Positions 1-1,364 are shown, counted from the stretch's first letter. The stretch is DNA of 1,364 nucleotides from Escherichia coli (GCF_003334335.1 NZ_QOWQ01000108.1), one strand, 5' to 3'. Translations and numbers: made by a program. The notes: generated by a model from the letters alone, not told the origin.

Positions 1-1364
1 GTATGCGCCCCGGTGTTATTCGTGGATTTGGTTCCGTAATCAAACGACGATGTGTTTTTCGTCCCCAAATCCGTACTGGATGCGCTGGCGCTGTGGGTGT
101 GCGATTTAATGCCGTCCTGTTCCTGAGACAATACGGCACGACCACTGGCGGGTTTGCCCTTAATCGTCCAGCCACGCATATCAGGGATCACGGCTGACGG
201 ATAAGCGGCTGCAAGTTTCGGGTATGCAGATTTGTCAAAAGTCTGCCCCTGCATCAGGGCATAGCCAGACGGAACGGTATCTGATGGCCACGGGATTGGT
301 GCGCCAGGCGGATAAAACTGCTCTGATGGCGTATAGAGTGAATAAACTGTACCGTCCGTTAACCCTTCCGGCTTATTAGCAGAATATGCTGGTGACGTAT
401 GAATCGTCACGCTGGCATTACTGGTATAATCCCATTGAATATTTACACCAGTCGCATAATTTCCGATTGCAACGTAAATATCGTAAGTATCACCAGATGT
501 ATTGACCCAGGCAAAATTTGTAAACCCTGTCGATGTGCGCTGCCATAAAGCACCAGTAATCCCCTTCGGATTACCATTACCTGCACGCAAAACAAGTTCA
601 GATATACCTGCCTGTTGAGGTGACCCCACGTTAAATCCCGCACCACCAATCAACGTAATTGAAACAACAGAACTCGCCTGTGGCATGGTTACCGTTGCTA
701 ATTTGAACCAACCAGCACCACCGCTGAATGACATTGTTGTTGAGTTAAGCGTACCAATATCTTTCGGCGTCAGTGTTATATCCGCTGAAAGCGCCTTACC
801 ATTCACCTTACGGGCAGAAGGTACCCGACCATTCGCATTATCATTAGCTGCTTTCACTGCTTTCGGTGTCGCGGCAAGCGTTTCAGATGCGCTGTTGGTT
901 GCACTACTGAGCTGGACAATTCCTTTTTGTGCTGTCGTAGCGTCCTGAGCAGTATATTTCCCGTTAGCAAGGTCATAGGCTGCCTTTACCGACTTTGGCG
1001 TTGCCGCCAGCATTTCAGATGTGCTGTTGGTCGCGTTGCTAAGCTGAACTATCCCTTTCTGTGCTGTCGTTGCATCCTGTGCGGTGTATTTCCCGTTAGC
1101 CAGCTCATACGCGGCCTTAACGGCTTTTGGCGTTGCCGCCAGTGACTCGGAAGTGCTGTTAGTCGCACTGCTGAGCTGTACTATCCCCTTTTTCGTCGTG
1201 CTCGCATCCTCAAGCGCCACGGCGGATGCAATATCCTCTGCCCGTTTTGCCGCTGTCTCAGCGCGCGTTGCCGCGGATTCCGCCGTACTTTTGCTCTGAG
1301 CTGCCGCCGTCGCACTGCCAGCTGCCTCTGTCGCCTTCGTGGATGCCGTCGTGGCGCTGCCCTT
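1..1364 (-). CDS. stf: Side tail fiber protein, lambdoid Stf family; internal fragment, incomplete at both ends (N-terminus beyond 1364, C-terminus beyond 1)
   Basis: Seen in sequence: the minus-strand frame with codons 1362-1364 down to 3-5 has no stop in 454 codons (bases 1-2 are a partial Thr codon). Translation begins [102 protein letters not shown]... and ends ...[99 protein letters not shown]. Established knowledge: KGIVQLSxATNS repeats, the NGKALSxDITLT motif, the tail-collar motif and HxH boxes are hallmarks of lambda Stf and related prophage side tail fibers (StfR/StfE-like) and the T4 gp37 distal fiber. Match is from memory, not from a search. Confidence 0.9.
3..104 (-). other. Start of the His-rich distal fiber region: HxH motif SHTHSA (87-104) and the terminal GAH(T) that probably opens a second H-x-H box
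   Basis: Seen in sequence: His codons at 99-101 and 93-95 (minus strand, H-T-H) and at 3-5. Established knowledge: repeated HxH boxes occur in the distal parts of T4 gp37 and lambda Stf, and coordinate metal ions in the gp37 tip structure. Only the first box lies inside the window. Confidence 0.55.
93..311 (-). other. Phage tail-collar-like domain
   Basis: Seen in sequence: [73 protein letters not shown]. Established knowledge: the pattern P-x-G-(W/Y)...(Y/F)P.L......PD(L/M)RG....G....(H-x-H) is the signature of the phage tail collar domain found in T4 gp12 and lambda Stf-like fibers. Assignment is by motif recall. Confidence 0.65.
315..746 (-). other. Gly/Thr/Ser/Asn-rich central domain of the fiber, function unassigned, probably beta-rich
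   Basis: Seen in sequence: translation [145 protein letters not shown]-richer DNA than the flanking stalk and repeat region. Structure is inferred from composition. Confidence 0.5.
753..806 (-). other. Conserved tail-fiber motif [18 protein letters not shown] directly after the repeat array
   Basis: Seen in sequence: aa 187-204 of the fragment. Established knowledge: NGKxLSxxITLTxxDxG-type motifs recur in long and side tail fibers of lambda, P2 and T4-like phages. Confidence 0.6.
846..1190 (-). repeat. Three tandem in-frame coding repeats of about 132 bp (44 aa): copy 1 at 1059-1190, copy 2 at 927-1058, copy 3 (partial, diverging after KAA) at 846-926
   Basis: Seen in sequence: copy 1 [44 protein letters not shown]; copy 2 [44 protein letters not shown]; copy 3 [27 protein letters not shown] then NDNANGR. 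Copies 1 and 2 are about 90% identical in protein but only about 80% in DNA, the differences being mostly synonymous third-position changes. Established knowledge: this resembles the phage tail fiber repeat of Stf-like proteins. Confidence 0.85.
1200..1364 (-). other. Ala/Thr/Ser/Lys/Glu-rich low-complexity segment of the fiber (aa 1-55 of the fragment), probably helical stalk
   Basis: Seen in sequence: translation [55 protein letters not shown]. Locally GC-rich DNA: 41 of 60 bases (about 68%) are G or C at 1261-1320, against about 35-50% in 421-720. A helical or coiled structure is inferred from composition only. Confidence 0.55.

Follow-up and report, generated by a model that had tools for sequence, protein, structure and literature searches.

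Is a repeat array within a phage tail fiber gene the record of a duplication that happened in place, or are its units members of an older stock held in common with other fiber genes? The question is raised by a stretch of Escherichia coli DNA (1,364 nucleotides of NZ_QOWQ01000108.1; below, "the window" means this whole stretch) in which a coding unit of 132 bp is repeated head to tail. An earlier note on this DNA, made from the sequence alone, had proposed that the array resulted from an old duplication held under purifying selection, that the silent differences between its copies would reduce their recombinational loss, and that copy number plausibly sets the length of the fiber's stalk. We assessed these proposals against the gene in which the array lies, the alleles of that gene in other strains and phages, and the related units of other fiber families.

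The window's gene and its repeat array

One minus-strand frame is open over the whole window (454 codons in 1364 bases), whereas each of the other five frames contains 14–32 stops; a mechanical listing of open reading frames gave plus-strand ORFs of at most 87 aa. The earlier note had been silent on strand; the coding strand is the minus. The window is an internal piece of the side tail fiber gene (stf) of a lambdoid prophage. This identification follows from a near-identical genome copy in which the genes stand in the order J-lom-stf-tfa. DNA like that of the window, at 99.9–100% identity, recurs in many of the complete genomes of E. coli; of 5426 such genomes, 1314 have matches that cover 80% or more of the window. 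In strain Ecol_AZ155, stf has 991 codons, occupies its place in the order J - lom - stf - tfa, and lies next to ompW and trp. The order in NZ_CP019005 is gpJ, a Lom family gene, the window's gene (991 aa), and the gene for a tail fiber assembly protein; that of phages PhiR26_1 and PhiR29_1 is the same as at the NZ_CP019005 locus. RefSeq names the product of the full gene "prophage tail fiber N-terminal domain-containing protein".

By several marks, the gene is a lambda-type stf. It is located between lom and tfa, downstream of J. The full gene, which extends beyond the window (locus L001), encodes an N-terminal collar domain homologous to residues 1–91 of lambda Stf; its first 60 residues are MAVLISGVLKDGAGKPIQNCTIQLKARRNSTTVVVNTVASENPDEAGRYTMDVEYGQYSV, as compared with MAVKISGVLKDGTGKPVQNCTIQLKARRNSTTVVVNTVGSENPDEAGRYSMDVEYGQYSV in lambda. 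The C-terminal receptor-binding tip resembles that of T4 gp37: the last 118 residues of the window's protein (aa 337–454) match the gp37 receptor-binding tip (PDB 2xgf) with an E value of 2.3e-52, and the Pfam Collar domain (PF07484) was detected at aa 354–401 (E 1.5e-11). When NCBIfam was searched with the full protein, no model matched. The repeat region by itself matched 26 PHROG families, the majority of which carry tail or tail-fiber annotations. The features of the window, in gene order, are these:

1197–1364, minus strand: distal end of the Ala/Ser/Thr-rich proximal shaft of Stf (aa 1–56), from the open frame and collinearity with lambda
1065–1196, minus strand: repeat unit 1, the "first" type (aa 57–100); Pfam PF03406 at aa 55–95, E 1.5e-19
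933–1064, minus strand: repeat unit 2, the "inner" type (aa 101–144); Pfam PF03406 at aa 99–139, E 4.6e-19
801–932, minus strand: repeat unit 3, the "last" type (aa 145–188); Pfam PF03406 at aa 143–183, E 3.6e-19
801–932, minus strand: parts of unit 3, a conserved core (846–932) and then an exit tail, from comparison with other fiber genes
357–800, minus strand: distal module after the array, from the open frame and matches to tail-fiber PHROGs, e.g., phrog_3299 and phrog_21552; a Pfam scan of this module found no domain
3–356, minus strand: start of the T4 gp37-like receptor-binding tip, from the match to PDB 2xgf
162–305, minus strand: Collar domain (aa 354–401), Pfam PF07484

The repetition is not in doubt. 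Tandem Repeats Finder returned a period of 132 with 2.4 copies, 80% matches, and a score of 405 over positions 877–1187 of the window. The self-alignment that had been suggested as a check exhibited the 132-nt periodicity: the best 120-nt self-match was 98/120 at an offset of 132, whereas 40 codon-shuffled controls averaged 53.9 and never exceeded 58. Significant, nearly full-length matches to the PF03406 (Phage_fiber_2) profile were obtained for all three units, each being aligned over model positions 1–41 of 42; these are units of about 40 residues in tandem within a tail fiber protein, as the family would have them. The proposal of three tandem 132-bp coding copies (44 aa each) is thus borne out. 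The span initially assigned to the array, 846–1190, was correctly placed, but it clips 6 nt at the start and omits the 45-nt divergent tail of unit 3; its limits are the KGIVQL of unit 1 and the point at which the conserved core of unit 3 stops. Copy 3 had also been said to leave the consensus and to mark the end of the array. It does both: its first 29 codons are kept, and its last 15 are unrelated to those of copy 2, with 11/15 residues different.

The array is the long-known "phage tail fibre repeat" (PF03406) in the stf gene of a very common E. coli prophage and, as such, is an already known kind of feature in this gene. According to Ghosh et al. (2012; PMC3368898), PF03406, or Pf2, was first recognized in lambda stf, and little was known of its structure and function.

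Silent divergence and the relationships of the units

Between units 1 and 2, 29 of the 132 nucleotides are different, 23 of them at third codon positions, and so are 6 of the 44 encoded residues. The expectation that these copies had diverged mostly at silent sites was therefore sound, although the number of differences had been put too low (20–25 nt). By the method of Nei and Gojobori, about 21.7 of the changes are synonymous and 7.3 non-synonymous (pS 0.67, pN 0.074), and dN/dS between the two copies, an estimate that the earlier note had called for, is about 0.05. The core of unit 3 (its first 29 codons) has 4 amino-acid differences from either of the other units. The units are thus anciently diverged and under strong purifying selection. 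The same method yielded a pS of 0.99 for units 1 and 3; we considered this value as a sign of excess divergence and discarded it as a small-sample artefact.

Codon choice was analyzed at degenerate positions where two units encode the same residue, the expectation being that of independent draws from the codon usage of the gene and its neighbors. Units 1 and 2 have 38 such positions and use the same codon at 21 of them, where about 14 were expected. For units 1 and 3, the codon was the same at 6 of 25 positions (about 8–9 expected), and for units 2 and 3 at 9 of 25 (about 9–10 expected). Unit 3 thus shares codons with units 1 and 2 at the level of chance, while the sharing between units 1 and 2 is above it, indicating that some common DNA ancestry is left in that pair. 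Because no pair of units is more different in its codons than chance would make it, there is no sign of selection for silent divergence per se; the divergence looks like a product of age and not like a selected device.

We examined the provenance of the units in 80 related loci from viral contigs, a sample that is biased toward multi-copy arrays, since the query held three units. These loci had arrays of 2–8 units at a strict spacing of 44 aa; the counts may be low, as the composition-bias filter of HMMER works against the Ala/Ser-rich shaft. The three-unit arrays among them belonged mostly to fibers of the P2 gpH type (with HEQSRRHPDASLTAKGF upstream). Overall, the window's units are 90–100% identical to same-position units elsewhere, including those of P2 gpH-type fibers, and only 58–78% identical to their own neighbors. 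Unit 1 is identical or 95–98% identical to the first units of other Stf alleles (own neighbors, 78% and 58%). Unit 2 is 95.5% identical to two units (4 and 6) of L015, an array of seven, and 90% identical to unit 3 of L007, L009, and L010 (own neighbors, 78% and 62%). The core of unit 3 is 97–99% identical to the last units of several genes, for example unit 4 of L007 and L009 (own neighbors, 70% and 74%). The class of a unit (first, inner, or last) was nearly always also that of its nearest relative in another locus, a count that is inflated by near-duplicate loci.

The mosaic character of these genes extends to finer scales. One allele (L006), about 98% identical to the window on both sides, has 16 mismatches crowded into 66 nt, all within the core of unit 2, and the exit sequence of the window's array recurs in two P2 gpH-type fibers (L016 and L017). 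As judged from these sequence comparisons, first, inner, and last units are shown to behave as position-specific types, common to lambdoid Stf, P2 gpH-type, and Mu S fibers. A simple duplication in place is not supported as the apparent origin of the array. The proposal of an old duplication accordingly survives in part. Its age, the purifying selection, and the absence of recent slippage agree with a dN/dS of about 0.05 and with the chance-level silent sites of unit 3; the simple in-place origin fails, the units being closer to same-position units of other genes.

Copy number, hybrid units, and the origin of the array

Proteins for a second sample were selected by their Stf N-terminal domain and hence independently of the repeats; units in them were counted with HMMER --max. 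Among 60 distinct complete Stf proteins, 26 had no unit, 23 had one, 8 had two, 2 had three, and 1 had five. The array in these proteins started most often at residue 464. The prediction that relatives would differ in repeat count was accordingly correct, with 0–5 units in these Stf proteins and up to 8 in other fiber families. Among close relatives, the array is constant. In alleles drawn across the whole ranking of E. coli matches, the span was unchanged in 16/16 (95–100% identity, full coverage, one aligned piece); alleles shorter by one or two units were encountered only among the more diverged ones sampled (92.8% and 96.5% identity).

Several natural alleles differ by whole units or carry hybrid ones. 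The array of PhiR26_1 comprises two units; that of PhiR29_1 is a single unit, which follows unit 1 of PhiR26_1 to about nt 57–72 and unit 2 from there on, in register. E. coli IH5 (L084) carries the window's allele with units 1 and 3, unit 2 being exactly missing. The O55:H7 strain USDA5905 has one hybrid unit, of the unit-1 type to about nt 42 and of the unit-3 type thereafter, between the same shaft and distal module as in the window's gene. The crossover in this hybrid falls where units 1 and 3 of the window share just 6–8 nt; its parents may have been other alleles, or a non-homologous event may have produced it. The hybrids fit either loss or gain of units, and the two cannot be told apart from them. 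In other E. coli alleles, homology to the window ends at query positions 239–260, 393–399, or 518, corresponding to nt 71–99 of unit 1, 2, or 3, and further matches start at unit nt 16–19; as these breakpoints are the ends of BLAST alignments, they mark mosaic boundaries rather than proven crossovers. Taken as aligned, the alleles are shown to differ by whole 132-nt units, with homology appearing to start or stop inside the conserved core of a unit. Identical adjacent units are present in related arrays (units 4–6 of L063, units 2–3 of L065, and a two-unit duplication in L015), and expansion in the family is therefore still under way.

How readily could the window's units recombine with one another? 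In register, they are identical over no more than 17 nt in a row (units 1 and 2), 8 nt (units 1 and 3), and 9 nt (units 2 and 3). The minimal segments for efficient pairing, as quoted by De Paepe et al. (PMC3945230), are 23–27 bp for Red-beta and 31–34 bp for RecA. Protection against the loss of units is thus a plausible effect of the silent divergence, as far as run lengths can suggest one.

We put a probability of about 0.7 on the following reading of these data: the units would be ancient, position-typed PF03406 modules in the Stf shaft, their core would act as a recombination seam, and this particular array would be stabilized by its silent divergence. The account closest to that of the earlier note has the array arising by duplication and then triplication in place, with the peptide under purifying selection and silent divergence favored since it blocks the recombinational loss of copies. 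A dN/dS of about 0.05 with high silent divergence, identical runs (17 nt or less) under the published pairing lengths, and constant copy number in the sampled close alleles would all agree with it. We nonetheless deem it unlikely, as the units resemble their positional counterparts elsewhere (90–100%) and not their neighbors (58–78%); unit 2 differs between alleles that are otherwise about 98% identical; codon sharing is below chance for no pair and above it for units 1 and 2; and identical neighboring units are tolerated in other arrays. A variant of our own reading adds selection at the level of DNA, by which the first, inner, and last types would be kept silently diverged within an array, preventing loss, and each type would be held almost identical in unrelated phage families, making the core a universal in-register docking site for swaps of receptor-binding modules. 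The same-codon fraction across units is 0.81 in the linker half and 0.71 in the core, and in this variant the silent conservation of the linker half would be a footprint of DNA-level selection rather than of recent spread. We regard this addition as quite improbable.

Other accounts fare worse. Recent expansion by slippage or unequal crossover would make the array a hypervariable, contingency-type repeat that changes within populations; it would accommodate the identical neighbors in L063, L065, and L015, but the units here differ at 22–42% of positions, and the three-unit DNA recurs at 98–100% identity, with constant span, across many unrelated E. coli strains. Units of a hypervariable repeat should be near-identical, and those of the window are not (58–78% identity, longest identical run 17 nt); nor does copy number vary among near-identical strains (16 alleles, same span). 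Divergence between the units and constancy of the array across strains exclude a recent slippage product, and we find the broader account barely credible. Modules might instead be exchanged by site-specific invertases of the Gin/Cin/Pin family and not by homologous recombination. Such a role in tail-fiber genes was proposed by Sandmeier in 1994 (as cited in PMC3945230), and the O55:H7 prophage has a recombinase gene, pinQ, immediately downstream of its tfaQ. The observed junctions, however, are in register inside conserved coding sequence, as homology-guided exchange predicts, and a search with the Gin/Cin/Hin-type crossover-site consensus TTCNNNNAAACCNAGGTTTNNGATAA (which may be too strict) at up to 3 mismatches found no match in L001 (13.4 kb) or in the O55:H7 locus (L085). 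We attach little credence to the role of invertases here. There is, finally, next to no chance that the periodicity belongs to a non-coding or antisense element, be it RNA or regulatory DNA, and not to a protein repeat. Short plus-strand ORFs (87 aa or less) do overlap the array; yet most differences between units (23/29) fall at third positions of the minus-strand frame, which is open for 454 codons and encodes a product that matches tail-fiber families. An Rfam scan at a permissive threshold (E up to 1) gave no matches. With this empty scan and the third-position pattern, an RNA or antisense element was excluded.

Place in the fiber and comparison with known systems

In Stf (991 aa), the array separates the Ala/Ser-rich proximal rod from the distal, receptor-binding half. 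The Stf of Ur-lambda, a trimeric virion fiber that confers faster adsorption, has been modeled from cryo-EM, cryo-ET, and segment-wise AlphaFold3 predictions (Yu et al. 2025, PMC12617516). In that scheme, a collar (residues 1–91) is followed by a linker, a proximal coiled coil (102–393), a hinge (394–422), and a distal region (PMC12617516). The gene is intact in Ur-lambda; in lambda PaPa, Stf is encoded as orf-401/orf-314. From the translation of orf-401, the single unit of lambda falls at residues about 359–400, abutting the hinge, and aa 1–56 of the window's protein are collinear with lambda Stf to about residue 358, within the proximal coiled coil. By this alignment, the three units of the window likely hold the equivalent place, at the junction of rod and hinge. 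Extra units would, by analogy, lengthen the segment just before the knee.

Structural predictions added little. The AlphaFold2 model of the three-unit segment, made with a 37-sequence alignment, had a mean pLDDT of 41, and a trimer mimic (three two-unit segments joined by 50-residue Gly/Ser linkers, with a replicated alignment) had a mean of 30; both values are too low for the models to be used. Consistently predicted in these low-confidence models were a short strand at GIVQL and, after it, two short helices, the first of which would cover SExLAAT. When a single-unit profile was compared with the chains of solved structures, only the Mu fiber S/S' was matched, at residues 116–156 (E about 1e-16). 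In the cryo-EM study of Mu, only the N-terminus of the fiber protein was modeled, the C-terminus being taken from an earlier crystal structure (PMC11915804). Rotary shadowing of a collagen-like prophage fiber revealed a globular bead at the position assigned to Pf2 (PMC3368898).

Under our preferred reading, that of ancient, position-typed modules, each unit would be a self-contained structural module of the trimeric fiber; for that reason, the gain or loss of a unit should make the stretch that immediately precedes the knee longer or shorter and leave the fold intact. The core, because it is conserved across fiber families, could serve as an in-register seam at which homologous recombination would swap distal receptor-binding modules and change the number of units. 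The three-unit array of the window would remain stable because its silent sites, with a longest shared run of 17 nt, are too diverged for efficient unequal crossing-over by RecA or Red.

As a discovery, the array carries small weight: its family has been in Pfam for decades, and the gene is annotated in more than 1000 complete E. coli genomes. Mosaic tail fibers, built from segments exchanged by lambda, P2, Mu, P1, and T4, have been on record since 1989–1994, and the sharing of such segments by these phages counts as textbook mosaicism (references 71–74 in PMC3945230). The present analysis contributes the position-specific types of unit, the finding of in-register hybrids in natural alleles, and a likely place for the array where rod and hinge join. 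The core of the unit would also be a natural in-register splice point for chimeric side tail fibers, and the natural alleles with 0–5 units suggest that the segment before the knee tolerates changes in length. Together, the splice point and this tolerance could be of use in the engineering of lambda-based delivery particles.

The nearest known counterpart is the Stf of phage lambda. The two have in common a place in the order J-lom-stf-tfa, an N-terminal collar domain, an Ala/Ser-rich rod, a matching repeat motif that comes after matching upstream sequence, a T4 gp37-like C-terminal tip, and a gene for a Tfa chaperone. They differ in that lambda has one unit where the window's gene has three, in that the latter has a shaft longer by about 100 residues, with the array starting at aa 464, and in the module that follows the array, which reads MDETNRKAPLDSPALTG in Ur-lambda Stf.

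Fibers of the P2 gpH type likewise contain tandem 44-aa units of first, inner, and last types. The DNA of their units is 90–99% identical to that of units 2 and 3 of the window, and L016 and L017 have both the exit sequence of the window's gene and its downstream module. In contrast to Stf, these fibers have another N-terminal domain for attachment to the baseplate (upstream HEQSRRHPDASLTAKGF), belong to contractile-tailed phages, and carried 3–8 copies in the viral-contig sample; P2 H itself reportedly has two units.

The Mu tail fiber S/S' (PDB 5yvq, 9ki1, 8ju3) carries a PF03406-family unit within the stretch of chain that S and S' share. Unlike the window's product, it is a short fiber with a single unit, and its distal half is switched by the G-segment invertase. 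The collagen-like fiber EPclB of EHEC (PMC3368898) resembles Stf in its PfN N-terminal domain and in having a Pf2 (PF03406) module set between rod-like segments; its rods, however, are collagen triple helices, and its C-terminal domain is a different one.

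Unit composition and silent-site divergence in related arrays

Among the related loci from viral contigs (L004–L083), several arrays were found to contain identical units. In L063, units 4, 5 and 6 are perfectly identical; in L015, unit 3 equals unit 5 and unit 4 equals unit 6, a two-unit duplication; and units 2 and 3 of L065 have identical cores. These look like recent expansions, unlike the diverged array of the window.

A different composition was observed in three related proteins from contigs of approximately 95–97 kb (P0002, P0003 and P0034), in which the 44-aa unit alternates with a 56-aa unit to form a 100-aa super-repeat, with up to seven units. 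The linker of the 56-aa unit, APSSHTHPWNQITGVPTASL, replaces an 11-residue sequence. One of the three is labeled as plasmid-borne, a hint of phage-plasmids.

In the non-terminal units of L004–L083, silent sites are better conserved in the linker half (nt 91–132) than in the core: codon identity at positions with identical amino acids was 0.81 in the former vs. 0.71 in the latter. This conservation could stem from recent spread, gene conversion, or a constraint at the DNA level.

Detection and annotation of the repeats

The default composition-bias filter of HMMER hid single-unit matches in Ala/Ser-rich Stf proteins. In the set sampled via the N-terminal domain (L086–L165), only one single-copy protein was detected with the default settings vs. 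23 with --max. Database homologues carrying these arrays, as retrieved by protein searches, are mostly “partial” proteins lying where short contigs end; several bear the wrong name “short-chain fatty acid transporter”. Evidently, the repeat arrays break short-read assemblies and mislead automatic naming.

Regions flanking the array

The shaft upstream of the array (window 1197–1364 and its upstream continuation in the full-length locus, L001) is extremely abundant in Ala, Ser and Thr. Self-matches of this shaft at offsets of 21 and 54 nt reveal weak internal periodicities. In lambda, the annotated hypothetical ORF orf206b lies antisense to the Ala/Ser/Thr-rich shaft region; it is probably an artefact of composition. 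The opposite end of the window contains the following feature:

3–356, minus strand (aa 337–454): start of the receptor-binding tip, a close match to the T4 long tail fibre protein gp37 (PDB 2xgf, E 2.3e-52)

This segment contains the Collar domain as well as the first of the His-rich GAH motifs.

Inactivated stf genes in E. coli IH5 and lambda

The two-unit version of the window allele in E. coli IH5 (L084; NZ_CP168269, 1502–3592) is a truncated stf pseudogene. It sits in a prophage remnant directly adjoining prpB, and a fibre assembly gene is retained downstream of it. In laboratory lambda (L166; NC_001416, 251–1456), the frameshift that inactivates stf occurs directly after the single repeat unit of this phage, at the end of orf-401 (...MDETNRKA/HWTVRH*).
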